Source of the DNA: Gemmatimonadota bacterium
GTDB taxonomy: Bacteria > Gemmatimonadota > Gemmatimonadetes > Palauibacterales > Palauibacteraceae
NCBI GenBank assembly: GCA_039587355.1
Contig: JBDHIO010000009.1
Coordinates: 4,907-68,906, forward strand
Direction of reading: 5' to 3'
DNA length: 64,000 bases
The notes beneath the pieces were generated by a model. The model was given only the letters and a program-made list of their open reading frames with translations. It was not told where the DNA came from and did not search any database. Both the position numbers and the translations under genes were made by a program. This document shows positions 270 through 13,012 of the stretch, one piece after another (the stretch's first letter is position 1; every line of letters begins with the position of its first letter).

Positions 270-1844
270 TTACCACACACCAGCCCCGAACTCGATCACG
301 AAGTTGAGCCGATTGATGTCGGCGAAACCCTTGCTCTGAACGCCGACGCGAAGGCCCCAGAAGTCTGTCAGAAAGCTCGAGAACTGGGCCCTCAGCTTGA
401 TCCCCAGCTCAGCCGTGAAGTCGGTGCGACGTACGGTCCCGTCCGGCTCTTGTTCGTCAGTAGGTATCCCCGCACGGGCTAGCTCCGTCGAGTCATACGT
501 GGCGACCTCAACCCCCGCCGCGAGGTAACCATCGATCCAGCGCGATGCCGAGGTCGTGTAATGAGCCATCCACCCGAAGTCCGCCAGTTCGGTGCTCTTC
601 AGGTAGACACGGTTAACGATGAACCCGCCGGTCAACGGGTCCTCTACATTCTTGACAATGAGAAAAGGGAACGTGAACGAGACGCCCAGGTCGCCGTCGT
701 ATCTGGCCGCGATCCCGAACGATCGTAGGACCTCCGCTTCCCGAAACCACTCCTCAAACTCTACCGGGTCAGCGGATGTATCCAGTTCCGGCCAGCCTGG
801 ACTCTCATGCTTGGAGATGTAGTAGTGGAGGCCCTCCGGCTCCGGGACGTTGGGGCTGGTCAGCGCCAGTTCTGACGGCGGCAAGGGCCTCAGCTCGTAT
901 TCGACGTGAGGAAGCTCGTAGGCGCCCGTGCTGGCGAAGTCCGACCGGGCTTCGCTCTCCTCTGGGAGTGGGGGGTAGACCCTGTGCTCGGGTCGTCGGT
1001 CCTTGGCCATCCATGCTTCGTACCCGCCCCTAAACAGCGCCCCCGTGCTGATGATGTCGCGCACTCCCCAGGCGTCGTTTACGTGGCGGCTAACATCGTA
1101 GGCAGGCGTGTACGCGCCGTCGCTGTTCTTGTCGGTGGCAAGCGCGTGCTTACCCTCCTCGACCAGCAGGTGCATGGGGAACTTGGTCTGGTCGTCCACG
1201 TCGATGACGTTCCAAAACCAGACGATTCCGTGAGCCTTTGCTTTGACCACCGTGACCATCAACACGTAGTTCGTCTCCTTGCAGCTCGCTTCTTCGAAAC
1301 TGCCGAAGCCCGTGCGAGGGACGGTGACCCGGAACTCTGCGGCTTCCAGATCGTGTAGGTGCGCACCGAGGCCCCACTCCTCGCTCAGGTAGGCGAAGTA
1401 GGAAATCCGTAAAGCGCCAACCGTTCGGAAGTCGATGATCGATTGCCCGATGTCCTCCTGGTTGAGCGCTACGCCGTCATAGGGCGAGCCGCTGGTCGAG
1501 ACTACCTCTTCCACTTGGTAATAGACGACGGGCCGATCGGGAGAAGGCTCGTCGAAAGGGAGGGGTTCGGGAATCCGAATCGACGTTCCCGACTGACCCG
1601 TGCGGGTCCGAGCGGCCCGTGGTCCATATAGGAGCTGCTCGTCAGGAGAGAACCAGTAGACTGGAGCGATATGGGAGACCAGTTCCTGCACGGTCATCTG
1701 CTCCTTCGTCCCCCACCAGACGGAGCCCGGTACGTTCGAGAAATCGCAGGTGCCAGGAGTGAAGCCTTGCTGTGCCACCAGCTCTGCGGCGGGCGTCAGA
1801 CAGCAGAGGGCCAGGCCGAGGTGCCCGCTACGGATGCGAAACAT
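270..1844 (-). CDS. secreted / outer-membrane beta-barrel-like hypothetical protein
   Basis: Long ORF 270..1889. An internal Met gives the signal peptide MFRIRSGHLGLALCCLTPAAELVAQ. The C-terminus ...RLNFVIEFGAGVW ends in an aromatic residue as in OM beta-barrels. No family recognised. Confidence 0.5.
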   Translation of the reverse strand: MFRIRSGHLGLALCCLTPAAELVAQQGFTPGTCDFSNVPGSVWWGTKEQMTVQELVSHIAPVYWFSPDEQLLYGPRAARTRTGQSGTSIRIPEPLPFDEPSPDRPVVYYQVEEVVSTSGSPYDGVALNQEDIGQSIIDFRTVGALRISYFAYLSEEWGLGAHLHDLEAAEFRVTVPRTGFGSFEEASCKETNYVLMVTVVKAKAHGIVWFWNVIDVDDQTKFPMHLLVEEGKHALATDKNSDGAYTPAYDVSRHVNDAWGVRDIISTGALFRGGYEAWMAKDRRPEHRVYPPLPEESEARSDFASTGAYELPHVEYELRPLPPSELALTSPNVPEPEGLHYYISKHESPGWPELDTSADPVEFEEWFREAEVLRSFGIAARYDGDLGVSFTFPFLIVKNVEDPLTGGFIVNRVYLKSTELADFGWMAHYTTSASRWIDGYLAAGVEVATYDSTELARAGIPTDEQEPDGTVRRTDFTAELGIKLRAQFSSFLTDFWGLRVGVQSKGFADINRLNFVIEFGAGVW

Positions 1845-2084
1845 GGGCCTCCTTGAGTCAGGTGGTTCGTGGCGACGAGATCGTGGCAAAGTGCGGTCGG
1901 TCCAGTACTGGCAAAAGTCCCCGGATGTGATGCGGAGAATCCTAGGTCGGCCTCCGTCAGGCTCCTCCGCCTGCTTCTAGCGCCTGTTGTCCAGGCATGT
2001 GACGCCCGGACCCGTGGCGATTGCTCGCGTTCTTCGACGGATCCGATCAAATTGGGCGCCGCGGCAGAACCCTGTCGCGACTAG

Positions 2085-2128
2085 GGGCGAATAGCTCAGC
2101 CTGGTTCAGAGCGCCTGCCTTACAAGCA
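2085..2128 (+). pseudogene. truncated tRNA-Val, 5' part only (acceptor, D-arm, anticodon arm through CAAGCA); attL-like remnant
   Basis: GGGCGAATAGCTCAGCCTGGTTCAGAGCGCCTGCCTTACAAGCA is identical to nt 1-44 of the intact tRNA-Val at 10695 and then diverges (CCTGTGAGG). About 100 bp upstream (1986-2084) is also ~80% identical to the region upstream of the intact gene (TGTCCAGGCATGTGAC...GCGATTGCTCGCGTTCTTCGA...GCGCCGCGGCAG...CCTGTCGCGA). Confidence 0.75.
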
Positions 2129-2208
2129 CCTGTGAGGGATGGCCGGTGCGGGAACGGTACCGGCCTTGCGGTGCCCTTGTGTGCCGTCGGCGCCACCGGC
2201 GAGAGCCG

Positions 2209-3291
2209 CTACAGGGCGACGTCCCGGGCGTGTGAGGTGACGTGCTTCGCGACGAATGGGGAGGTCATCGCGCGAACTAGCGCGCTGTAGTCGAGCTGAA
2301 ACGCGACCTCCACGCCGACGGAGAGGCGGTCCTGGCCGGCATCCGCGACGAGGTGGTCGCTGCTGGCCCCGAGGATCGAGATTCCGGGAGGCGGAAGGAG
2401 GCCGTCCGGATCCGTGTCCTGCCGTCCGAGGGCGAGGATCAACCGCCAGCTGTCGCCCCGATACACGACAGTCGGTTTGTCCCCGAACGCGGTCTGCGCG
2501 ATCTCGCCCCATGGTTGCGACGGTTTGCGTTTCGACTCGATCACTTCGGCGACGAGCGTGATGGCGTCGGTATGCAATCCGTCGATGGGTCGGCGATGGA
2601 GGGTCTCGCGTCCGAGCAGGATGGACTCGCCAAGACGCAGATGGTTGATTCGGTGCATGTCCGCGCCGCTGAAGGCCCACTCGATGCTGGCGGAGTTGCC
2701 CCCGGACACGAGGCCGATAACCGGGCCGAAGGTCGTGTCGATGGAGTCGGCCAGCGCGGACAGTTCGACCATGTTCGTCCTGTCCGGCGCCACGCCGCTG
2801 TGGCAGGCCAGGTTGGCGCCGATGCCCTCGAGCGCGATGTTCGGCAGGCGCAGCGTCTCGCGCACGTGGAACTCGACGTCGCCCGGAAGGATGCCTTCGC
2901 GGAGATCCCCAAGCTCGACCATCAGGACAACGCGGTGTGTCCGCCCGGCCTGCCGGGCCGCGGACGAGAGCTTCCTGATGACATCGAGCTCGGTGTTGAA
3001 GCTCACGTCGGTCTGCGCCACGACTCGGTCGGCCTGGCTGAGCATCGGAGAGCGAATGAGCATCATCGGGGAACGCACTCCCGCGCGGCGCATCGACTCG
3101 ATGTTCTCGATGCGAGAGTCGCCGAGCGAACTCACGCCCGCCTGAACCAGCGCGCCGGCAATCTCGGGTGATCCGAGCGTCGCCTTCGTAACGCCCGACA
3201 CCGAGATGCCGCGGTCGGCCAGCCGTCCCACCAGGACGGCCGCGTTGTGTCGGATCTTGCCGAGGTCGATCTCCAGTCGCGGCGTGCTCAT
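2209..3291 (-). CDS. PLP-dependent alanine racemase-like enzyme (YhfX / amino-acid racemase-like family)
   Basis: 360-aa ORF. N-terminal alanine-racemase TIM-barrel-like region (MSTPRLEIDLGKIRHNAAVL...GVTKATLGSPEIA) with the C-terminal beta domain. The stop overlaps the start of the upstream gene by 4 nt. Confidence 0.75.
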   Translation of the reverse strand: MSTPRLEIDLGKIRHNAAVLVGRLADRGISVSGVTKATLGSPEIAGALVQAGVSSLGDSRIENIESMRRAGVRSPMMLIRSPMLSQADRVVAQTDVSFNTELDVIRKLSSAARQAGRTHRVVLMVELGDLREGILPGDVEFHVRETLRLPNIALEGIGANLACHSGVAPDRTNMVELSALADSIDTTFGPVIGLVSGGNSASIEWAFSGADMHRINHLRLGESILLGRETLHRRPIDGLHTDAITLVAEVIESKRKPSQPWGEIAQTAFGDKPTVVYRGDSWRLILALGRQDTDPDGLLPPPGISILGASSDHLVADAGQDRLSVGVEVAFQLDYSALVRAMTSPFVAKHVTSHARDVAL

Positions 3292-4493
3292 CGCGCGACG
3301 GCGGGCAGCTTCTCCTTCAGCTCGGGGAAGGCCGCGAGAACCATCTCGACCAGGCGCTCGCGCGGCCAGGTCAGCGCATCCGTCACAGGGATGCCGAGCT
3401 CGTCCTCGTACATCGCGATGGCTTCGGTGACCTCCGTGTCGGTCATGTTCTCGTGGTTGATCGTGAGACCGATGACCTTCGTGTCGGCAAAGGTCTGTAT
3501 CAGGTGGATCTCGGACGCGGCCGTTGGCATGGCCAGCGCGGGGAAGTCGCCGAGGCGATTCCGTCCTGGTGCGTGCTGCAGCACCACGCCTTCCGGGCGA
3601 CTACCGCGGAGAATGAACGTCGAGGTGAGGTAGGCAGGGTGGCTCAGCGCGCCCTGTCCCTCGACGACGATCACATCGGGACCCTCGCCTTCGAACGCTT
3701 CGACGACGGTGGCTTCCATCTCACCCGAACAGAACTGCGACGGAATGGCATCGAGCGCCACTCCGTAGCGAGCACCCTGGATCAAACCGGTCTGGCCGGT
3801 TCCGACCAGCACCGCGGTCAGGCCGCACTCGCGGAGAGCCTGCGTCAGGATCGTTGCCGTAGTGCGCTTGCCGATCGCGCCGTCGGTGCCTAGCACGGCG
3901 ATGCGCGGGCAGGTGACCTCGCTGATGCGACCGCTGAACATGCGCAGATCCTTCTTGGCCCGTGGCTTTCGGACGTCGAGAATCTCCACGCAGTTCTCCA
4001 CGCTCGCCGCGGCGAACTCCGGGTCGTCGTTCAGGAACTCGTGGAGACCGTTGACGACGTTGATGCCCAGCCCCATCGCCTCGAGCACGACGCGGCGCTC
4101 GTGCGGCGACAGAAGGCCGCTCGAGGGGGCCATCCCGAAGATGAAGTAATCCGGCACACCTCCGACGTGCTCCAGTGCGCTGACCAGGTCACGGCAGATG
4201 GGCGTGTCGTTCGGTCTGCCGTCGAGTACCGCGCCGGCATCAAGACCGACCTTCTCGCTGTCGATGACCGCCAGGATCTCATACCTGTCCGAGTGACGGA
4301 CGAGCCCGTTGGCGGTCTTTCCGTCGCTCGCGCCGAAGTTGGCCTCGCAGTAGACGACGGCTGTTGCGGCCCGGGGTGGTTGCCCGTCGATGTTGCCTGG
4401 CGACGGGTGTGTCGTCAGGTCGTTTCCTGGGGGCCGTCTCGGACCACGGGACGGACGCGACGGGATGGATTGCGGATCTCGGAACACGGTCAC
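3288..4493 (-). CDS. DUF1611 family protein (Rossmann-like N-domain plus P-loop-like C-domain)
   Basis: 401-aa ORF with a GTDGAIGKRTTA P-loop-like segment and the typical DUF1611 C-terminal half (PDVIVVEGQGALSHP). Forms an operon with the racemase-like gene via a 4-nt overlap. Confidence 0.75.
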   Translation of the reverse strand: MTVFRDPQSIPSRPSRGPRRPPGNDLTTHPSPGNIDGQPPRAATAVVYCEANFGASDGKTANGLVRHSDRYEILAVIDSEKVGLDAGAVLDGRPNDTPICRDLVSALEHVGGVPDYFIFGMAPSSGLLSPHERRVVLEAMGLGINVVNGLHEFLNDDPEFAAASVENCVEILDVRKPRAKKDLRMFSGRISEVTCPRIAVLGTDGAIGKRTTATILTQALRECGLTAVLVGTGQTGLIQGARYGVALDAIPSQFCSGEMEATVVEAFEGEGPDVIVVEGQGALSHPAYLTSTFILRGSRPEGVVLQHAPGRNRLGDFPALAMPTAASEIHLIQTFADTKVIGLTINHENMTDTEVTEAIAMYEDELGIPVTDALTWPRERLVEMVLAAFPELKEKLPAVAR

Positions 4494-4694
4494 TCCTCGA
4501 GTTGGGCTCAGAGGAGGCGACGGAATCGTGCCGGCCAGAGTTGGCCGGAATTCAACGAGAGGTCCCCGCTAAGTCGGTCTTGAAGCGGAGCCGCCACGGG
4601 AAGGCACTGCTTCCCTGAGCGAAATCCACCATAGACACTACCGTCGGGGAGCCTTCAAGACCAGATCGAGGGGAAGCCCGTCGACATCCGGAGG

Positions 4695-4791
4695 GCCTGC
4701 ATTTACGAGCAGGAAGTCGGGGGTTCGAACCGAAGCTCGACGTCAGCCGACCGAAGCTCGCCGAGGGAGCGAGGCCATCCCTCTTCGCCCC
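4695..4791 (+). pseudogene. tRNA-Val 3' part (anticodon arm, variable loop, T-arm, acceptor 3' strand) interrupted by a 46-nt insertion in the T-loop; attR-like remnant
   Basis: GCCTGCATTTACGAGCAGGAAGTCGGGGGTTCGAA [46 nt containing CCGAAGCTCG x2] ATCCCTCTTCGCCCC, compared with the intact GCCTGCCTTACAAGCAGGAAGTCGGGGGTTCGAATCCCTCTTCGCCCA. The discriminator A is replaced by C. Confidence 0.7.
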
Positions 4792-4813
4792 CATTATGTT
4801 GTCCCTCAGTCAC

Positions 4814-4856
4814 GGGCGAATAGCTCAGCCTGGTTTAGAGCACCTGCCTTACAAGC
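4814..4856 (+). pseudogene. second truncated tRNA-Val 5' part (diverged copy), 22 nt downstream of the 3'-part remnant
   Basis: GGGCGAATAGCTCAGCCTGGTTTAGAGCACCTGCCTTACAAGC has 2 mismatches to the intact gene and then diverges (GGCCCCGAG). There is no conserved upstream block. Confidence 0.7.
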
Positions 4857-5237
4857 GGCCCCGAGATCCCCCGATTCCCGGCATTTCTCCGTATTTCAAC
4901 GGGAAAGTACGGATCATATCCCGTACTTCGATCGTCGTCTCCGGGGGTGATCCGTATATCGACAGCCCCACGAACAGCCCCAGGTCCGTGAATCCAGGAG
5001 GTGCGGGTCGCTCGGGCCCCACCACGTTCGAGAGCTGGGGCATGCTCACCGCGACCCAGTGCCCTGGCGTAGACAGGGGACGCCAGCCGACAGACAGGCG
5101 TCGCCGTGGGAGTGTCGAATGGCGCAGATGCACCCAACGCCGGCATCATTACGCAACGTCTTTTCGTCAATACGCGAGTCATACGACAGCCACGGTCAGC
5201 CCAAAGACATTATCCAGAGAGATATGGGAGACTGCCA

Positions 5238-5720
5238 GTGGAACAACACGATGCGTTGCTCACTCTAAGTGAGATTGCAGCAGCATTCGTTGGGTTTTCG
5301 ACGATCGTGGTTGTTTTCAGGTCGAATCGTTCGGAACTCCAACGGTTTCGTCTGCGCGGCGTGGCCGAGATCGGCATCGCCGTCCTCTTCGGGGCGTTCT
5401 TGCCGCTCATGGTAGCGGGGCTGGTTTCTTCAGACTCTCAAGTCTGGCGCATCAGCAGCGTGATCTTCGCGCCGACAGCCCTGACTGGTTGGATCGTCTG
5501 GTCCCGGAGCGTGTCCCGAGCCGGTCACCCGCCGACCTTCGGAAAGCTGCCGTTCGCACCCGATGTCGTGGCCAACGTGGTGGGACAGGTGCTGCTGTGG
5601 TGGAACGTGATGGCCCCGACCCCGGCCGCCCCTACTCGATATGTGACGGCTCTGATGTCGTTTCTCATCATCGCAGCCATGAGTTTCGTCGCGTCGGCTT
5701 TCGGCGGAGCTGAGACCTAG
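5238..5720 (+). CDS. small integral membrane protein (about 4 TM helices), function unknown
   Basis: GTG-start ORF in the frame of ORF 5106..5720. Hydrophobic segments LLTLSEIAAAFVGFSTIVVVF, IGIAVLFGAFLPLMVAGLV, VIFAPTALTGWIVW and ALMSFLIIAAMSFVASAF. Lower-GC region (~50%). Confidence 0.45.
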   Translation: MEQHDALLTLSEIAAAFVGFSTIVVVFRSNRSELQRFRLRGVAEIGIAVLFGAFLPLMVAGLVSSDSQVWRISSVIFAPTALTGWIVWSRSVSRAGHPPTFGKLPFAPDVVANVVGQVLLWWNVMAPTPAAPTRYVTALMSFLIIAAMSFVASAFGGAET

Positions 5721-5811
5721 AGCGACGGAATTGAGGGGATAATGCCGAGTAGGGTGAGTTAGGAACAAGACCCTTGGACGTCACGGGACGGTTCTCTTCT
5801 CCCTAGGCGGG

Positions 5812-6270
5812 TTGCGGGGCGATGTGTCCGAGAGACTCCTGTATTCGACCGTAGCCCTAGAGACCGTGCTTCTTCGGAACGAAACCGAGCCGATTCAAAG
5901 TGCCCTGTCCGATCGCGTGGCCTTCCTCGTCACACAGGAACTGGAGGGATGGCTAGCCGTCGCAAAGGATGTGAAACGGGCGTACGGCCTTAGAAGTCGA
6001 TTCGTTCATCACGGTGTCGACGCAGTCGACTCGGAGGTTGTTAGTCGCTTCTTGCTGCATAGTTGGCTGGCGATTTGGACCCTGATCCACAACGCACATC
6101 GATTTGAAGATGCGAATGAACTGGCCGATTCGTTGGACAGATTGAAGTTCGGTGGGGGCCGCTACTTGATCAGGTCAGTGGGTCTGGCCTCCGCCACTGC
6201 ACCTAACAAAGTCCGCGGGCGGCTCCGGGTCTCTGGCCGGACCGCAGCGATGCCCTCGAGGGGACTATGA
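5812..6270 (+). CDS. hypothetical protein with an Rx4H (HEPN-like) motif, RSRFVHHG
   Basis: 152-aa ORF with a TTG/GTG start in lower-GC DNA. The only sequence hook is R-x4-H followed by H (LRSRFVHHG) in a predicted helical protein. Its stop overlaps the next ORF (ATGA). Confidence 0.45.
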   Translation: MRGDVSERLLYSTVALETVLLRNETEPIQSALSDRVAFLVTQELEGWLAVAKDVKRAYGLRSRFVHHGVDAVDSEVVSRFLLHSWLAIWTLIHNAHRFEDANELADSLDRLKFGGGRYLIRSVGLASATAPNKVRGRLRVSGRTAAMPSRGL

Positions 6271-6806
6271 GTCTTGAAGATCTAGCGCGAATCGGCGAGT
6301 TCGCGGGCGTGATCGCCGTCCTTGTCACTCTACTCTACCTGTCCATCCAGGTACGGCAGAGCATCCGAGAGACCCGTGATCAAACAGCCTGGAGGATCAC
6401 GGAATCACTCAACCAGTTTACGGTCGCGCTCACCTCCGACGGGGAGACCGCGGAGATCTGGTGTCGCGGGAACGACAACTTCGACGCGCTCGATCGCGTC
6501 GAGCGGGAGCGGTTCGTAGTCCTGGTGGCTCAATGGGGCAATGTCTTGATCGCTTTGTACCGCACGAGGGACACCTCCTCGATCCCCGCCGAATACTGGG
6601 ACCACAACCTGGAGACGTTTGCGATCTACTACGCCACCTATCCGGGATTTCGGAAGGCGGTCGAATACGTGAACGTGCCGGACTACCTCCTTAGAGAGGT
6701 CGTCGCCAGGGCCGAGCTCGGAGCAGGCGCGCCGGGCACAAATACCTCGCCAGCAGCGATGAACGAGCGAGCCGAAGGTTCCACATCGGCGGACGAGGAG
6801 GCATAG
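6267..6806 (+). CDS. hypothetical single-pass membrane protein
   Basis: 179-aa ORF. N-terminal TM helix IGEFAGVIAVLVTLLYLSIQV followed by a soluble domain. 4-nt overlap with the upstream ORF indicates translational coupling. Confidence 0.5.
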   Translation: MSLEDLARIGEFAGVIAVLVTLLYLSIQVRQSIRETRDQTAWRITESLNQFTVALTSDGETAEIWCRGNDNFDALDRVERERFVVLVAQWGNVLIALYRTRDTSSIPAEYWDHNLETFAIYYATYPGFRKAVEYVNVPDYLLREVVARAELGAGAPGTNTSPAAMNERAEGSTSADEEA

Positions 6807-7191
6807 CCTGGGGTCGCCGCAAGGACCGTCCGTGAGAGCGAGAGGTCCGGAGATGAAGCAGACAAGCGTCGGTGGTGTGATTCAGATCTTCGCCAACGTC
6901 GGCGTGATCCTGAGCGTTTCTCGCCATTCAGATCGGCCCAAGCAAGCGTCCGAAGCCCCGCCGACACCGGACCACCCCTCAAACCACGCCACCCGAATTC
7001 CCTCTAGATCGCCGACCCCGACCCCCCAATCCGATTAGATCGACCCACTGTCCCTTTGGGGATGCAGCTCCTAGCGTGAATCGTTCAGATTAAGGGAAGG
7101 GGCGACTGCTGACATCCCCGTCCAGCAATCCATGTATTAGTTGGATGGCTCGGAACCGACCGTGGGATTGCGAGTCAAGGAGATGAAGATC

Positions 7192-8085
7192 ATGTCCACC
7201 ATTCGCTCGCCGCTACTCGTGGCCGCAGCGCTCACCCTCCTGCCTGCCGCGGTCACGGCTCAGGGCAGGGTGGAAAAGAACGTTGTCGTGGGCACGTGGT
7301 CTGGTCTGGCCCTGGTGATGGACGTCTACCATCCCGAAGATCCGAATGGCTACGGCATCGTATACATTGCCGGGAGTGGTTGGACGAGGCCTTTGTCTTA
7401 CGATGGTGCCCTTCTGACCGAACGGGGCGAGTCGCAGCGGTCGCCGCTCGTGGATGCAGGCTACACCGTCTTTTCCCTAACTCACCGAGCTCTTCCACGA
7501 TTCCATTTTCCTGCTCCACTGGAAGATGTGCAGCGGGCCGTCCGATTCATCCGATTCCACGCTGGGGAGTATGGCATTGACCCGCAGCGAATCGGGGCCA
7601 TGGGCGGTTCATCTGGGGGAAACCTGGCCCTCCAACTAGGCGTGCTAGATGGTGAAGGGGATCAAGACGGCCCTGATCCCGTCAATCGGGTGAGCGCGAA
7701 GGTCCAGGCCGTCGTCGCACAGGCAGCCCGAGCCGACCTGACTCATGCCGATGGGTCTTTCAGCTTCATGACATCTGTGTTGATGATCGGGGCTCGCCCT
7801 TCGCGGGACGTTGAGTCGCAGGTGGGCCGAAAGTGCTGGGAGGCGTCACCGGTCAACCACGCTTCGAGCGACGACCCTCCGACGCTGCTTCTCCACGGTG
7901 ACATGGATGAAGTCGTCCCATACCACCAATCGGAACTCATGCTCGCTGCGTTGCAGGAGCACGAGGTGGAGGCTCGCTTGCTCCGGATTCCTGGTGGCGG
8001 CCACGGTCCATCGTTTCCCGGGGCCACAGACCCGCCGGACCACATTCGTGCCGTGATCGATTGGTTCGAGCGTCTGAAGCGATAG
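7192..8085 (+). CDS. secreted alpha/beta-hydrolase (esterase/peptidase S9-like)
   Basis: Signal peptide MSTIRSPLLVAAALTLLPAAVTAQ. Nucleophile elbow GGSSGGN (G-x-S-x-G), a C-terminal HGDMDEVVP acid and GGGHG His motif. RBS AAGGAG 9 nt upstream of ATG 7192. Confidence 0.8.
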   Translation: MSTIRSPLLVAAALTLLPAAVTAQGRVEKNVVVGTWSGLALVMDVYHPEDPNGYGIVYIAGSGWTRPLSYDGALLTERGESQRSPLVDAGYTVFSLTHRALPRFHFPAPLEDVQRAVRFIRFHAGEYGIDPQRIGAMGGSSGGNLALQLGVLDGEGDQDGPDPVNRVSAKVQAVVAQAARADLTHADGSFSFMTSVLMIGARPSRDVESQVGRKCWEASPVNHASSDDPPTLLLHGDMDEVVPYHQSELMLAALQEHEVEARLLRIPGGGHGPSFPGATDPPDHIRAVIDWFERLKR

Positions 8086-8192
8086 GTCGGGTTCTACCTC
8101 GCCAGTGCGGACACTTCAGACTAGGCTTGGGCTTCCCACGGGCCCTAGGTGTCTACGCGGGTCTGGAGCAAGACCGCTCGCGGTCGCCCGCG

Positions 8193-8618
8193 CTACCTCA
8201 CGTATTCGAGCGAGTTTCCCGTCTGGCATTCATCCAAGACCAGCCGGTCAACCAGGACCGCCACGAGGTCCGAGCACCCGCACCCTTCGGGAACGAGAAA
8301 GAGGTTGTCCCGGGACGGTTCCCAGCCACCGGTCGTCACTCGGCTCTGCGTCGACACCTGCCCACCCTCCGTGACCCGTAGTCCTAGGGTATGCTCGAAA
8401 CTGCGGTCCGCACGAAGTACAAGCGTGCCCTGGGTCACCTCGACGAATCGCTGGCCTTCCTCAATGAAGGGGGCGGGCAGGTCACCGTCGTTGACGGACC
8501 GGAGTTGATATGTGCCAACGACGCTCGGCGGATCACCACCCGCGCCGGTGGGGTTATCACTTCCTCCACAAGCACAGATCCAAAGAAGGAGGATCGTGCC
8601 CAGTCCTCGGCTGCACAT
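8193..8618 (-). CDS. putative lipoprotein, function unknown
   Basis: Internal Met of ORF 8193..8825 gives MCSRGLGTILLLWICACGG (signal peptide plus Cys). 141 aa. Confidence 0.5.
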   Translation of the reverse strand: MCSRGLGTILLLWICACGGSDNPTGAGGDPPSVVGTYQLRSVNDGDLPAPFIEEGQRFVEVTQGTLVLRADRSFEHTLGLRVTEGGQVSTQSRVTTGGWEPSRDNLFLVPEGCGCSDLVAVLVDRLVLDECQTGNSLEYVR

Positions 8619-8922
8619 CCGCGGCTCCTTCGACGTTCGTCTGCCCCGCTTTCTCCTACTTTGTAGCGGAACATCCGTGCCGGCCTGCACGCCCGCGCCC
8701 AGCGGTCGAAGGAGCGGACCCCACCCGGGTTGGTTGGCGGAGGGGCATTCCGCCCCACTCGCTGTACCGGGGCGAAACAACCCGCCGTGGGACGGGCTGG
8801 CTTCTCGGCCTGTGTGAGAGAGCATCCCGGAGGCGTGGAGCGCAACCCCTAGCCAGTCCCCGAACGCTTCGGCGCTCCGTCACGAGTGGTTTGAAGGCCC
8901 TGAGGTCATCACCGTCAACGCT

Positions 8923-9213
8923 ATGAACCCGACATCGACGCACGTTGAGGAGGCCATCCGTTCCAGTGGTCTCCGCGTGACCTACACGCCCTGCGTTCTG
9001 ATGCTGCGGAAGCCTCCGCCCGAAGCCCTGAGCAAGATTGGAAACCTGCCGGACGCGGAACGTCAGAAGTCATTCCGACTGCTAATCTCAATCCTCGGCG
9101 TGGCTGATTCGGAACGGAGAGCCGGGTGCGGCGATAACTGCGCCCACTGGTGGAATCGCGACCTTCGTGATGAAGCGGTCGTCCGGCAGATTCTCGCGGA
9201 GGGTGCGGCCTAA
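8923..9213 (+). CDS. small hypothetical protein
   Basis: 96-aa ORF in lower-GC island DNA. No recognisable motif. Confidence 0.3.
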   Translation: MNPTSTHVEEAIRSSGLRVTYTPCVLMLRKPPPEALSKIGNLPDAERQKSFRLLISILGVADSERRAGCGDNCAHWWNRDLRDEAVVRQILAEGAA

Positions 9214-9396
9214 CAGACGCGGTGGGGGCACCTCATGTCCGGCGCGCCCTCGCCGGGCCCGTTTAGGGTTGGTTGGAAGGTGTCGTCGTCGGGGGGGGGT
9301 CGGGAGGGTCGTAAGCCAGGACTCCTGGAGCCGTGCCTGGAGGTTGGTAGCGGCCAAGGCGGGACAAGCGCACGCCCTTCGTGGGCCCGCTCATGT

Positions 9397-9640
9397 CGTC
9401 CCTCGCCAAGCCGCGATCGTTTCCGAATCGAAGTGCACGTCCAACTGTGGAAAGGCGATCGTGATGCCCGCGTCCCTGAGAGCCCACCAGATCGCTTCGT
9501 GCAGATCAGAGCTGCGATGGAGCCGATTCCATGGGTCGTCGAACCACACCGACACTTCAAAAGCGATTGCTACTGGCGCGGTAAGCGCCCAGCTCGCGCG
9601 CTTCGCTCGCGGTCCGCATCTTGGTCGCGCAGCAGAATCG
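9397..9640 (-). pseudogene. C-terminal fragment of an MscS-family mechanosensitive channel gene (remnant)
   Basis: The minus-strand translation ...AIAFEVSVWFDDPWNRLHRSSDLHEAIWWALRDAGITIAFPQLDVHFDSE* aligns with the MscS C-terminal domain ([41 protein letters not shown]). The upstream ~200 aa of MscS are absent; that DNA is occupied by a + strand ORF. Confidence 0.45.
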
Positions 9641-9739
9641 CAAGTCGGTTAGAACGCGTTCGAGGAGCTGGTCATCTCAACACCAAAGATCCCGTGGCCG
9701 CGCATCCTAGTAGAGGGAGCGGTAATCGTCGCCTCGATC

Positions 9740-10363
9740 TTGCTTGCGTTCGGCGTCGATGCGGCTTGGGACGGCCGAGCGGAAAGGCAACGTCGCGATG
9801 CCATGCTCGTGGCACTTGCCGGCGACATGGCCTTGGCGAAAGACGAGATCGATCGCGTCGCTGGCTATCACTCCATTGGACGAAGTGCCGCTGAAGACCT
9901 GCTCAGGTACGAGGATGTCCCTGCGGGGCAGGAGGCTCAGTCTGTCGTTGATTCCCTGGTCGGAGCGGTCTCGTTCGGGGCGGCCAGCTATGATGCGCCC
10001 TTGGGCGCGGTTGGAAGTCTCATAAACTCCGGCGACTTCGAACTCCTTAATGATCCGGCCTTGGCGGCCGACTTAACCGCGTTCCCCGCTTTAATCGCCA
10101 ACCTCGAGCGTGAGCAGAGTTTCCTCGCACCGGCGATCGCGGACTTGGCCGTCTACCTTGGGTCCGAGGGAGTCGATATGAGCCACCTGCAGACCGAGGT
10201 GCCTTGGCAGACCCGCCCCACGGAGGCATTCGCGCTCCTTGCGTCCCCACGCTTCAGGGGCATCATCGGCGAATTCTATATCTCGTACCGTAACACCTTG
10301 GGCGCGCTCGCCTCGATCCGCGAAGCGCTCGCCCGGATGGAGTCACGCCTGCCTGTCTCATGA
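9740..10363 (+). CDS. hypothetical protein with an N-terminal hydrophobic segment
   Basis: 207-aa ORF (TTG start in the track). The frame is open upstream to ~9653 and encodes a TM-like stretch (VIVASILLAFGV), so the true start is uncertain. No family recognised. Confidence 0.45.
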   Translation: MLAFGVDAAWDGRAERQRRDAMLVALAGDMALAKDEIDRVAGYHSIGRSAAEDLLRYEDVPAGQEAQSVVDSLVGAVSFGAASYDAPLGAVGSLINSGDFELLNDPALAADLTAFPALIANLEREQSFLAPAIADLAVYLGSEGVDMSHLQTEVPWQTRPTEAFALLASPRFRGIIGEFYISYRNTLGALASIREALARMESRLPVS

Positions 10364-10694
10364 GCCGCGGAAAGCTTCGGGCTATGCGTTCTAACAAGCG
10401 ATTGCTGCTGACGGCCCAGCTGTAGTCTCCCGCGCTTCGCGCGCCCCGCCTACGATGTCCGCAGCAGAGTCGCAGAACCTTTAGGCTGCCGGTGAGGGGT
10501 TTGGTTCGACATCACAACCGACGACATCCGCTAAACAGATCGAGGTTCTCTACGCCGCTGGAGTGGACCCCACGGATGCCTGTCGAGTGGCGCCAGCTGT
10601 CCAGGCATGTGACACGAGGACACTGAGCGATTGCTCGCGTTCTTCGATCGGTACAATCAGATTGTGCGCCGCGGCAGGATCCTGTCGCGAACTC

Positions 10695-10770
10695 GGGCGA
10701 ATAGCTCAGCCTGGTTCAGAGCGCCTGCCTTACAAGCAGGAAGTCGGGGGTTCGAATCCCTCTTCGCCCA
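10695..10770 (+). tRNA. tRNA-Val (anticodon UAC)
   Basis: Cloverleaf read directly: acceptor GGGCGAA/TTCGCCC, D-arm GCTCAGCCTGGTTCAGAGC, anticodon arm CCTGC-CTTACAA-GCAGG (anticodon TAC), T-arm GGGGGTTCGAATCCCTC, discriminator A. CCA is not encoded. Confidence 0.9.
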
Positions 10771-10796: not shown

Positions 10797-10846
10797 GAAG
10801 AGGGATCGGCGGACGCGCAGCGTCGTAGCCCATCCCTCTTCGCCCA
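10797..10846 (+). repeat. hairpin repeat copy 1 ending in the tRNA-Val 3' end (GAAGAGGGAT..loop..ATCCCTCTTCGCCCA)
   Basis: 10-bp perfect inverted repeat GAAGAGGGAT/ATCCCTCTTC around a ~25-nt loop. The last 15 nt are identical to the tRNA-Val 3' terminus. Confidence 0.7.
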
Positions 10847-10888: not shown

Positions 10889-10937
10889 GAAGGGGATCGG
10901 CGGACGCAGAGCGTCGCAGCCCATCCCTCTTCGCCCA
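10889..10937 (+). repeat. hairpin repeat copy 2 (GAAGGGGAT...CCATCCCTCTTCGCCCA)
   Basis: About 90% identical to copy 1, 43 bp downstream of it. Confidence 0.7.
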
Positions 10938-11817: not shown

Positions 11818-11894
11818 CCTTCTGCTGAAGCAGGAGTATCAAGGACAACTTCCGCCCCGCGGTCCAGCGGGGCGGCCCCCCGTCTTTCGGCCAC

Positions 11895-11928
11895 TCGGAA
11901 CGTCGTAGCCCATCGCTCCTCGCCCATT
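11895..11928 (+). repeat. degenerate third copy of the tRNA-3'-end repeat
   Basis: CGGAACGTCGTAGCCCATCGCTCCTCGCCCAT versus CGCAGCGTCGTAGCCCATCCCTCTTCGCCCAT (~80% identical). Lies just downstream of the OMP gene. Confidence 0.5.
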
Positions 11929-12010: not shown

Positions 12011-13012
12011 GTGATTGAATGGATCAAGACTCGTTCGAAGCGTGACCTCGTATTGTCTCTCGTAATCGCAGGGGTCTTCTTCGTGTTCGCGGGCGCCTTC
12101 GTCCGCGGCGTGTTCAGCGAGCGGCACTACAGCTCCGAGTACAGCTCCGGACACAACTACGAGTACGAGTACTCGGGCGGCATGCTCTTCGATGAGTCGT
12201 TCGCCGTAGCTCCCGGGGCACTGCTCGTCGTGCGGGTTTCCGACCTCGACGTGGTCGTTTCCACCACGTCCGGCAGAGAGGCCACCGTCCGCCTCGACCT
12301 CGATGAGGGCGAGGGCGTATCAGGCAATGCCCTCGAGGCCATGGGCTTCCGGGTAGAGCGCACGAGCGAGGGCCTCGAGATCACGACGGAGGGCAACGAT
12401 CGCGGGCGGCACGACGACTTCGACGGGACGCTCATGGTTACCGTGCCGACGCAGTTCGATGTACAGGTGCGCACGGGTGACGGTGACGTGGCTGTCGAGT
12501 CGGTCGAGGGCTCCGTGATGCTCAACACGGGCGACGGCGACATCGCGCTCGGTGGCGCGCTCGGGCCCGAAGTGATGATCCAGACGGGTGACGGCGATGT
12601 GGCGGTCGGAGGCGTGGGAAGCGCGGACATCAAGATCCAGACGGGTGACGGTGACGTGGCGCTTGGCCGGCTCGAGGCCGAGCAGGTGCAGGTCCGCACC
12701 GGCGACGGCGACATCGTGATCGCCGAGATGTCCGGTGCGCTCAAGGCGTCGACCGGCGACGGCGACGTGATGCTGCATGTCGGCAGCTTCCAGGGCGTCG
12801 AGATCTCTACGGGCGACGGTGACGTCACCCTGTACGCTCCGTCGTCTCTCGCGGCCGACGTATCGATCATCGGCGGCGAGCTCGTCCTCGGTGAGGCGTT
12901 CGCCCTTCCGGCGACGATCGAGGACCGGCGGGTCGAAGGTCAGCTGAACGGCGGCGGACCGAACCTCCGCATTCGGGTGGGCGACGGAACGATCCGGCTG
13001 ATCGAGCGCTAG
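12011..13012 (+). CDS. DUF4097-type beta-strand repeat protein (putative adhesin / Toastrack family) with N-terminal TM anchor
   Basis: N-terminal TM helix LVLSLVIAGVFFVFAGAFV followed by about 8 tandem ~17-aa repeats carrying TGDGDV/I (coding 12470-12850). GTG start with RBS GGAGG upstream. Confidence 0.7.
   Translation: MIEWIKTRSKRDLVLSLVIAGVFFVFAGAFVRGVFSERHYSSEYSSGHNYEYEYSGGMLFDESFAVAPGALLVVRVSDLDVVVSTTSGREATVRLDLDEGEGVSGNALEAMGFRVERTSEGLEITTEGNDRGRHDDFDGTLMVTVPTQFDVQVRTGDGDVAVESVEGSVMLNTGDGDIALGGALGPEVMIQTGDGDVAVGGVGSADIKIQTGDGDVALGRLEAEQVQVRTGDGDIVIAEMSGALKASTGDGDVMLHVGSFQGVEISTGDGDVTLYAPSSLAADVSIIGGELVLGEAFALPATIEDRRVEGQLNGGGPNLRIRVGDGTIRLIER

Follow-up and report, generated by a model that had tools for sequence, protein, structure and literature searches.

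HEPN-superfamily proteins are recognized by an Rx4-6H motif at the end of helix 3, in which a polar residue follows the arginine, together with an acidic residue in helix 2 and an insert that separates helix 2 from helix 3 (Anantharaman et al. 2013, PMC3710099). ApeA, at ~600 aa, carries the motif as RNKITH and has Pfam domains of its own, HEPN_Apea/ApeA_NTD1 (bioRxiv 10.64898/2026.03.20.713152; PMC3710099), and a further HEPN family is known from integron cassettes (the PDB 3jrt family; PMC3710099). A CALIN is a cluster of attC sites without an integron integrase, in which two or more sites share a strand within 4 kb and no intI is nearby (Cury et al. 2016, PMC4889954). In proteins with DUF4760 (PF15956), an N-terminal transmembrane (TM) helix precedes a helical domain of ~130 aa.

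In the window (the whole 64-kb stretch of DNA analyzed here), three ORFs lie side by side:

5238–5720, forward strand: ORF1, GTG start, encoding a multi-pass membrane protein of 160 aa; a conserved, real gene unrelated to ORF2 or ORF3
5812–6270, forward strand: ORF2 as first called, 152 aa, TTG start, TGA end; probably a piece of a pseudogene extended by a read-through tail
6267–6806, forward strand: ORF3, 179 aa, an N-terminal TM anchor plus a conserved ~120-aa helical domain; a member of an integron gene-cassette family

An initial account of this DNA (the sequence-only reading) took the three ORFs for toxin-antitoxin or abortive-infection cargo. We find neither a three-gene nor a two-gene module: ORF2 is truncated, and the adjacencies are unconserved. 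We place at roughly three in four the probability that ORF1, ORF2, and ORF3 are a chance juxtaposition of unrelated genes. By this explanation, a gene remnant would have lost its N-terminal domain, HEPN helix 1, start codon, and native stop; its frame would then run through 39 non-coding-like codons to a TGA that overlaps the ATG of ORF3 by chance; and ORF1 and ORF3 would be intact, independently conserved small membrane proteins flanking the remnant. For the window itself, the outcome is the removal of a false candidate defense module, and little further importance attaches to it; as a general point, read-through of a gene remnant can imitate translational coupling.

ORF2 is a gene remnant with a read-through tail

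The argument turns on three features of the ORF2 frame:

5755–5757, forward strand: in-frame TGA that closes the ORF2 frame upstream (read from the sequence)
5782–6150, forward strand: remnant of a HEPN-like C-terminal domain, matching residues 326–448 of the 449-aa protein P0002 and carrying E17 and R61-S-x3-H66-H67 (5992–6012)
6154–6270, forward strand: read-through tail of 39 codons with no counterpart in any homologue, whose TGA overlaps the ATG of ORF3

The ORF is present as the sequence-only reading described it, with a TTG start at 5812 (ORF1 has the other non-canonical start, GTG at 5238) and the R-x4-H-H motif LRSRFVHHG at residues 60 to 68 (R61 at 5992–5994, H66 at 6007–6009, and H67 at 6010–6012); the public annotation begins at GTG 5824 (148 aa), which has a G-rich stretch upstream. 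The 152 aa do not, however, make up a whole protein but a C-terminal piece followed by a tail. At the 5′ side, homology detected by tblastn begins at 5779–5791, upstream of the TTG and just past the in-frame TGA, and direct reading of the sequence between that TGA and 5812 shows no ATG, GTG, or TTG. The remnant is 51% identical to P0002 over 123 residues (BLASTP, E = 2e-36), its nearest relative has 53% identity, and an exhaustive HMMER search aligns ORF2 residues 1 to 113 with residues ~336 to 448 of ~450-aa proteins. No trace of the missing N-terminal ~325 residues was found within the 64-kb window by tblastn. ORF2 residue 1 corresponds to P0002 residue 336, past the helix at 319–336, such that only 10 to 11 residues of HEPN helix 1 persist in frame, upstream of any start codon; with helix 1 absent, ORF2 does not hold a complete four-helix HEPN domain.

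At the 3′ side, homologues finish at the equivalent of ORF2 residue ~113 to 116, 0 to 3 residues past a K-F/Y position. In the tail, G+C at codon position 2 is 0.68, versus 0.39 to 0.50 in the coding parts, and AlphaFold gives residues 111 to 152 a block-mean pLDDT of about 55 to 76. The ATGA overlap between ORF2 and ORF3 is real (the TGA ends at 6270, and the ATG is at 6267), but it arises because the frame reads through 39 codons beyond the end of every homologue, and it is no sign of translational coupling by design.

ORF2 is, in sum, the 3′ remnant (the last quarter) of a gene, missing the N-terminal domain, HEPN helix 1, the start codon, and the native stop. Most probably it is a pseudogene fragment without activity, and the HEPN RNase role predicted for intact relatives is impossible for this copy. 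Its 113 homologous codons are uninterrupted, with E17, R61, S62, H66, and H67 all retained; consequently, either the truncation is recent or selection still acts on the fragment. AlphaFold folds residues 1 to 113 confidently, though it is the alignment of intact homologues that drives this confidence.

A mosaic accessory segment beside a tRNA gene

The three ORFs lie in an accessory segment (4857–10694) that is a mosaic, bounded as follows:

4813–4856, forward strand: copy of the 5′ half of tRNA-Val, at the left edge of the segment holding ORF1 to ORF3
10695–10770, forward strand: intact tRNA-Val, anticodon TAC (ARAGORN; Rfam, 73 bits), at the right edge of the segment; an integration hotspot

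The left-hand copy and 10694–10737 form a direct repeat of 44 nt with 95% identity, and G+C content is ~59 to 62% at ORF1 to ORF3 versus 65 to 68% in the flanks, which bears out both the foreign composition and the integration-hotspot location noted in the sequence-only reading. The ORF1-ORF2-ORF3 arrangement was found in two assemblies only, which are near-identical (99.96% identity) and may not be independent, such that the arrangement could reflect a chimeric assembly. The ORF1 to ORF3 region is mostly ordinary genome debris in a mobile-DNA-rich patchwork beside a tRNA gene.

ORF1 matches the earlier description of a 4-TM protein upstream on the same strand: hydropathy shows three TM segments that are strong and one or two more that are weaker, and a 91-nt gap separates it from ORF2. 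Its frame opens at 5106, and GTG 5238 yields the 160-aa product common to its homologues (n = 15, 68 to 86% identity, one labeled Gemmatimonadota); DNA homology to one related contig (L013) spans exactly 5239–5720. ORF1 relatives in other assemblies, one of them labeled Gemmatimonadota, sit after amidohydrolase genes, in ordinary chromosomal rather than defense contexts, and in the assemblies examined a HEPN-like or ORF3-like gene was never seen beside them. A 163-aa gene upstream of an ORF3 homologue (L005–L010) was considered as a sign of a conserved ORF1-ORF3 pair and rejected, as it has no similarity to ORF1.

ORF3 is likewise the 179-aa single-pass protein first described, with one N-terminal TM segment and an ATG that overlaps ORF2. 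It has 10 homologues (56 to 84% identity, 37 invariant positions), among which DNA homology begins 4 nt before the ATG. Contig L012 encodes an integron integrase (306 bits against TIGR02249, cutoff 265), and the first cassette behind it holds an ORF3 homologue (2440–2952, 72% identity) with an attC site at its 3′ end (2942–3055, 110.7 bits); GTTAGAAC occurs there at 2388, 45 nt before the ATG of the homologue. Distant ORF3 relatives are cassettes in five attC-bearing contigs. ORF3 shares the layout of DUF4760 proteins, and its first 34 residues are almost identical to those of P0162, which matches DUF4760 at E = 5e-10. This similarity stops after residue ~49, however, and thus covers the N-terminal anchor only; the DUF4760 model matches neither ORF3 nor five of its relatives (close or cassette-borne) at E ≤ 0.1. 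A family library scan also returned a weak TMEM175 match to the ORF3 TM helix.

The right end of the segment is a cluster of two attC sites without an integrase (CALIN), consisting of:

9549–9662, forward strand: attC site 1, R′ core GTTAGAAC at 9648–9655 (covariance model, 93.8 bits, E = 5e-22)
9649–10478, forward strand: complete gene cassette between the two attC sites, holding an ORF at 9740–10363
10384–10494, forward strand: attC site 2, degenerate R′ TTTAGGC (covariance model, 75.2 bits, E = 3e-17)

Sites were detected with an nhmmer profile and then with a covariance model built from 80 attC sites. The first shares 87% identity with the L012 integron attC. The cassette starts with TTAGAACGC, which is reverse-complementary to GCGTTCTAA (10386–10394), the R″ of the attC belonging to that cassette; this pairing is a cassette signature. 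DNA folding of the attC candidates, in a G+C-rich background, gave z-scores that were not significant. The cassette ORF has eight distant relatives in attC-bearing contigs and a weak CARF match. As in described CALINs, the two sites share a strand, with 835 nt between them, and show cassette-type R′/R″ complementarity, and tblastn with an integron integrase as query found neither intI nor a remnant of it in the window; the cluster differs in its relation to ORF1 to ORF3, lying 2.7 kb downstream of them and not demonstrably including them. At least 120 metagenome contigs carry attC sites of this family, arrayed at a spacing of 600 to 800 nt; together, the window and the related contigs define an attC family that is abundant, along with a recurrent set of membrane-anchored cassette proteins of environmental integrons. 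In one integron among these contigs, the integrase is on the same strand as the cassettes.

These sites raise the possibility, tentative in our judgment, that ~4857–10494 is a decayed cassette array, which ORF1, the HEPN remnant, and ORF3 each entered either as a cassette of its own or through integrase-mediated insertion at secondary sites, with later erosion of their attC sites. This reading addresses origin only and is thus compatible with chance juxtaposition. It is consistent with the genuine attC pair and intact cassette at the right end, with the ORF3 homologue that leads the cassettes of a true integron of the same attC family, with distant relatives of ORF3, ORF 9740–10363, an esterase, and ORF1 in attC-bearing contigs, with a GTTAGG core exactly at 5757 (the 5′ edge of the HEPN remnant), and with documented integrase insertion outside att sites (bioRxiv 10.1101/2022.09.11.507474). 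The covariance model, however, run with filters off, returned no attC at E ≤ 10 in 4800–9548, which includes ORF1 to ORF3 (as a one-family model, it could miss diverged sites); the window has no integrase or remnant of one; ORF1 relatives are mostly ordinary chromosomal genes; and the HEPN-like family is absent from 331 kb of attC arrays. A 19-nt inverted repeat (5753–5771/7468–7486) was rejected as a cassette boundary, as the match does not exceed chance expectation and the second arm falls within the esterase gene.

No conserved module at the locus

The sequence-only reading had recognized no family in any of the three ORFs, and Pfam, PADLOC, NCBIfam, and PHROGs indeed match none of them; the defense-system search used PADLOC-DB v2. 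For ORF2 alone, an alternative is that it functions as a stand-alone, sensor-less mini-HEPN, exapted after truncation and translated from GTG 5824 or TTG 5812 independently of ORF3. Such a protein would fit the 113 intact codons with every conserved residue kept, the existence of a public gene call, and the confidently predicted helical fold. We nevertheless consider it unlikely: HEPN helix 1 is missing, whereas HEPN RNases require an intact bundle and dimerization (PMC3710099; bioRxiv 10.64898/2026.03.20.713152); both short relatives examined in their genomic setting, P0005 and P0075, are parts of broken genes rather than stand-alone genes, as are the fragments of the split gene in L040; and a word-indexed search of 5.8 billion clustered proteins returned ORF2 alone, with no close homologue of the truncated form.

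The reading originally offered, in which ORF2 is a small HEPN RNase toxin coupled to ORF3 as its membrane antitoxin, partner, or effector, with ORF1 as a possible third member, in an island carrying toxin-antitoxin or abortive-infection cargo, draws on real observations. The ATGA overlap is genuine, the Rx4H motif and acidic residue are retained in ORF2, the segment is low in G+C and sits at a tRNA hotspot, and combinations of HEPN and membrane proteins are known (membrane-associated HEPN groups [PMC3710099] and Cas13b-Csx28). This reading is very improbable, however, given an ORF2 devoid of helix 1, N-terminal domain, and native stop, an overlap made by a tail absent from homologues, the lack of any PADLOC match, ORF3 relatives that are stand-alone integron cassettes, and ORF1 relatives in ordinary chromosomal settings. 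In the conserved-adjacency test for a two-gene module, 22 loci of full-length HEPN-like genes, from about ten phyla, share no neighbor family, and the gene upstream of each ORF3 homologue is different in every case; the ORF2-ORF3 pair itself occurs in no other sequence examined and is unique to this genome. A nascent toxin-partner pair, in which truncation removed a presumed sensor or autoinhibitory N-terminal domain and thereby freed a constitutively active mini-effector (from 5812 or 5824) newly coupled to ORF3 by the ATGA overlap, is scarcely credible.

A large HEPN-like family

The remnant preferred here as the explanation of ORF2 reveals a large, uncurated family of ~450-aa proteins with a confident AlphaFold model and HEPN-type C-terminal motifs. 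An exhaustive HMMER search returned 919 matches at E ≤ 1e-3 (457 at E ≤ 1e-10); each represents a cluster at 50% identity, the family thus numbering at least 919 such clusters from about ten phyla, and the family is absent from Pfam, NCBIfam, and PADLOC. Intact members combine a ~315-residue N-terminal alpha/beta domain, whose fold has no match in the PDB, with a C-terminal HEPN-like domain bearing E...R-S-x3-H-H. An alignment of 119 family sequences shows no variation at S62 or H67 and ≥90% conservation at R61 and H66; the R-S-x3-H-H columns are conserved likewise in 70 full-length proteins. By our own estimate, an R-x4-H pair occurs by chance in roughly one in five proteins of ORF2 size, and the pair gains meaning only because it is conserved in homologues. 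The likeness to HEPN/Abi2 Rx4-6H motifs remarked on in ORF2 therefore proves to be a conserved HEPN-like catalytic-type motif across a large homologous family.

The AF2 model of P0002 (pLDDT 94) has helices at 319–336, 340–355 (with E352), 363–375, 379–402 (with R396 and H401/402), and 406–428, a pattern that the ORF2 model repeats as a predicted structure. As in the HEPN superfamily, R-S-x3-H-H falls where helix 3 is predicted to end and extends into the loop that precedes helix 4, helix 2 holds an invariant glutamate, and an extra helix lies between helices 2 and 3. The family differs from the superfamily in its acidic motif (E-x4-R versus the usual E-x3-[KR]) and in having no Pfam HEPN model among its leading matches, and the window copy differs further in having no helix 1. 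Neither HEPN nor ApeA Pfam models appeared among the 25 most frequent matches to the 119 members at E ≤ 1, nor did any match ORF2 or eight full-length members scanned singly. The sequence-only reading had tied its HEPN guess to conservation of the arginine and histidine in homologues and to a HEPN-like fold. The residues are conserved; Foldseek, in contrast, found no significant HEPN match among solved structures (2hsb is at rank 31, E = 4.1), and PDB sequence searches with the single sequence and with a 70-sequence profile gave no match. The guess probably holds for the family.

By analogy with ApeA, intact relatives may be single-protein, dimerizing HEPN RNases with an N-terminal sensor domain, and the profile of the family makes it a candidate single-protein antiphage RNase of the ApeA type. 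Like ApeA, its members are single genes without a conserved partner, patchily distributed across many phyla. Unlike ApeA, they are ~450 aa rather than ~600 aa long, carry RSxFxHH rather than RNKITH, and do not match the ApeA Pfam domains; in the window, no more than the final quarter of a gene of this kind is present. Relative to integron cassette HEPN proteins, the likeness lies in a HEPN-type domain in an integron-associated setting; the differences are that no PDB chain matches in sequence, that the ORF2 fragment is not flanked by attC sites, and that the family was absent from the attC arrays sampled. Plasmid and phage collections gave no match to the full-length member queried, and PADLOC-DB v2 gave the 70 full-length members isolated weak matches only (best E = 0.005). 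Family genes are often found broken, with an IS200-type insertion plus a frameshift in L163 and genes split in two in L164 and L040. Full-length genes are solitary and sometimes adjoin restriction-modification, PARIS-like, or Old-like genes, a proximity to defense genes in which the family again resembles ApeA.

Gene layout and composition

The segment spanning positions 5238 to 6806 is best explained, with a probability of about 0.75, as a mosaic in which the genes are unrelated and the middle one is a HEPN-like pseudogene remnant. A sequence-only reading had proposed a three-gene toxin/defence module here, and the positions that it gave for the ORFs are correct:

5238 to 5720, + strand: ORF1, GTG start, 160 aa
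5812 to 6270, + strand: ORF2, TTG start, 152 aa
6267 to 6806, + strand: ORF3, ATG start, 179 aa

ORF1 and ORF2 are spaced by 91 nt, and the reported ATGA overlap of ORF2 and ORF3 is present in the sequence. Also borne out are the foreign composition (G+C of 59 to 62% at the ORF region versus 65 to 68% in the flanks) and the lack of a recognizable family, since ORF1 to ORF3 have no match in Pfam, PADLOC, NCBIfam, or PHROGs. By hydropathy, ORF3 has the single transmembrane (TM) segment ascribed to it, located at the N terminus; ORF1, described as a 4-TM protein, has three strong segments plus one or two weaker ones. The ORF1–ORF2–ORF3 arrangement was seen in only two near-identical assemblies.

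ORF1 and ORF3 as independent genes

ORF1 and ORF3 are independent of ORF2 and of each other. ORF1 has relatives at 68 to 86% identity (one labelled Gemmatimonadota), with DNA homology limited to the coding region. An amidohydrolase gene (Amidohydro_1/3 or Amidohydro_2) precedes the ORF1 homologue in five other assemblies (L013–L018), at a distance of ~43 nt in four and ~200 nt in L013, the contig with the closest homologue; none of the five has a HEPN-like or ORF3-like neighbour of the homologue. This pairing hints at a functional connection, which the window lacks. The assembly sharing the window's locus also carries, on a different contig, an ORF1 paralogue with 71% identity. On L013, a run of small same-strand genes at 4337–7455 (ParE toxin, SDR, DUF2283, DUF433, and HTH_3) looks like a cassette or toxin-antitoxin array; an attC profile search of this contig gave a single weak match (5836–5874, E = 0.037).

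Relatives of ORF3 share 56 to 84% identity and 37 invariant positions. Their similarity to the window begins 4 nt 5′ of the ATG, and their upstream neighbours all differ: an unknown 163-aa protein, a tRNA-Pro region, a SnoaL-like protein, an ORF3-like paralogue, and an integrase. ORF3 residues 1–34 (window 6267–6368; TM anchor plus QVRQS.R juxtamembrane motif) are nearly identical to the start of protein P0162; the remainder of P0162 is a DUF4760 domain with no sequence relationship to ORF3. Because the near-identity is restricted to the N terminus, one membrane-anchor module seems to be combined with different C-terminal domains.

The integron link

The integrase upstream of the ORF3 homologue on contig L012 is an integron integrase (306 bits against TIGR02249; cutoff, 265), and at 1163–3262 of this contig the integrase and cassettes lie on the same strand:

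2215: stop of the integrase gene
2388: junction GTTAGAAC
2440: start of the first cassette ORF
2942 to 3055: attC site

On this contig, GTTAGAAC lies 45 nt 5′ of the ORF3-homologue ATG, and the attC is a ~110-nt imperfect palindrome after the homologue's stop, running from ...TCTAAC-AAGCGATTGCTGC to GCAGCAGAATCGC-...-GTTAGAAC. A two-arm pattern built from this element and used to search metagenome contigs matched at least 120 of them, many with several copies 600 to 800 nt apart. The consensus across the window, L012, and contigs L041–L160 is R″ YCTAAC-AAGCGATTGCTRC ... GCAGCAGAATCGC ... R′ GTTAGRY. In contig L074, the R′ of one site and the R″ of the following site are reverse complements, a hallmark of cassette arrays. 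This attC family is abundant, well conserved, and often in arrays, and distant ORF3-like proteins are encoded by cassettes on five contigs that bear attC sites. With a covariance model derived from 80 sites, exactly two attC sites are detected in the window:

9549 to 9662, + strand: attC, 93.8 bits
10384 to 10494, + strand: attC, 75.2 bits

Between them lies a single intact cassette (9649 to about 10478) containing an ORF at 9740–10363. Because the window holds no integrase or integrase remnant, the pair is a CALIN (a cluster of attC sites lacking an integron integrase) as defined by Cury et al. 2016 (PMC4889954). A decayed cassette array is a plausible, though less likely than not, origin of the mosaic and is compatible with the main reading, but the covariance model detects no attC of the L012-type family flanking ORF1 to ORF3, so their arrival as cassettes is not demonstrated.

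A TM-like stretch, ILVEGAVIVASILLAFGV, lies at 9689–9739, in frame and directly 5′ of the TTG of the cassette ORF, where no canonical start codon serves it. A relative on contig L075 includes this stretch within its ORF, so the true start of the cassette ORF may be non-canonical or lost.

ORF2 as the remnant of a larger gene

Within the mosaic, ORF2 is a truncated copy, the last part of a larger gene. A word-indexed homologue search returned nothing besides ORF2 itself; when 1.84 billion cluster representatives were searched exhaustively with HMMER, 919 relatives emerged at E ≤ 1e-3, of which 457 reached E ≤ 1e-10. Almost all of them are ~445 to 460 aa long, and ORF2 residues 1–113 match their positions ~336–448. 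Homology of the ORF2 frame starts at 5779–5791, 5′ of the TTG (tblastn and BLASTP) and shortly after an in-frame TGA (5755–5757); the homologous stretch ahead of the TTG holds no ATG, GTG, or TTG, and the family's first ~325 residues have no counterpart in the whole 64-kb window (tblastn). At the other end, relatives terminate 0 to 3 residues past the K-F/Y equivalent to ORF2 residue 113, and the ORF2 frame continues for 39 codons. This tail has a block-mean pLDDT of about 55 to 76 in the predicted model and a G+C at codon position 2 of 0.68, versus 0.39 to 0.50 in real coding parts. Because the tail, without counterpart in relatives, ends at the TGA overlapping the ORF3 ATG, we interpret the apparent translational coupling as a by-product of read-through.

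As a caveat to the pseudogene reading, the 113 codons of the remnant are uninterrupted and every conserved residue is kept. Exaptation as a mini-HEPN lacks support, and we consider it improbable. The proposed three-gene module is likewise unlikely.

A 19-nt inverted repeat (5753–5771 / 7468–7486; 89% complementary, with GTTAGG and CCCTAAC cores) has one arm exactly on the remnant's 5′ boundary and the other within a BD-FAE esterase gene; it is probably due to chance.

Probable HEPN character of the family

The sequence-only reading likened the motif LRSRFVHHG to that of HEPN RNases. We find it at ORF2 residues 60–68 (R61, 5992–5994; H66/H67, 6007–6012). In the numbering of P0002, a 449-aa member, E352, R370, A372, Y393, S397, H401, and H402 are invariant in 70 full-length proteins and R396 is conserved at ≥90%; ORF2 retains equivalents of all these residues. 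The full-length AlphaFold2 model is very confident (pLDDT, 94; pTM, 0.91), with an alpha/beta N-terminal region of ~315 residues followed by C-terminal helices (319–336, 340–355, 363–375, 379–402, 406–428, and 436–448). A 2013 survey gives the positions of the features that define HEPN (PMC3710099): the Rx4-6H motif at the end of helix 3, a conserved acidic residue on helix 2, inserts between helices 2 and 3, and a polar residue following the motif Arg. The predicted structure agrees, with E352 within helix 340–355, the extra helix 363–375 as a helix 2–3 insert, and R396-S-x3-H401-H402 at the end of helix 379–402. However, a Foldseek search of the PDB with both models gave nothing significant (HEPN protein 2hsb ranked 31st, E = 4.1), and no HEPN model is among the 25 most frequent Pfam matches of 119 family members at E ≤ 1. 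On this still incomplete evidence we regard the family as HEPN-like, with reasonable though not complete confidence; the fold assignment is based on the predicted structure and the position of the motif. Translation in the window can start only after helix 319–336, so the core bundle of ORF2 is incomplete.

The full-length family has no entry in Pfam, NCBIfam, or PADLOC and no match in plasmid or phage collections. Profile HMMs do not assign it to ApeA: no ApeA model is among the 25 most frequent Pfam matches of the 119 members, and none matches the window ORF or the 8 full-length members scanned singly. Screening one genome for each species turned up 22 loci, hosted by Clostridium, Ignavibacteria, Cyanobacteria, Desulfobacterota, Scalindua, Chloroflexia, Gamma- and Alphaproteobacteria, Acidobacteriota, and Bacteriovoracaceae. 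All-against-all comparison of flanking ORFs revealed no neighbour family shared between loci. Among the neighbours are restriction-modification enzymes, AriA/AriAB-like AAA_15 ATPases, Old, BrxH-like, or PIN proteins, along with many housekeeping genes. Like the window copy, the short members checked are debris of broken genes: P0005 (130 aa) is the final fragment of a gene that an IS200-type transposase interrupts and that also has a frameshift, and P0075 (161 aa) is the latter half of a gene that has been split. Members are often broken, as at three loci:

L163, 1454 to 3393: IS200/Y1-transposase insertion plus frameshift; adjoins DUF6602 and Abi_alpha genes
L164, 1 to 1294: split in two
L040, 5986 to 7328: split in two

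The tRNA-Val hotspot

The placement of the island at an integration hotspot was sound: tRNA-Val, with many partial copies around the segment, is a hotspot on both sides.

10695 to 10770, + strand: intact tRNA-Val
2084 to 2127 and 4813 to 4856: 5′-half copies
4703 to 4798: split 3′-half copy, interrupted by a 47-nt insert
1980 to 2128, 4703 to 4856, 10590 to 10770, 10802 to 10846, 10893 to 10937, and 11882 to 11926, and L001 3 to 180: tRNA-Val-related repeat intervals

A near-identical assembly (L001) has an additional 5′-half copy upstream of the window, making three partial 5′-half copies in total, one just outside the window; another of them also includes ~100 nt of upstream sequence. The last ~15 nt of the tRNA are copied at three places downstream of the intact gene. 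The segment at 2128–4702, flanked by a tRNA-Val 5′ half and 3′ half, carries DUF1611 and alanine-racemase-like genes. Within the ORF at 12011–13012, a 57-nt (19-aa) unit with a TGDGDV core is repeated six times in tandem at 12461–12833.
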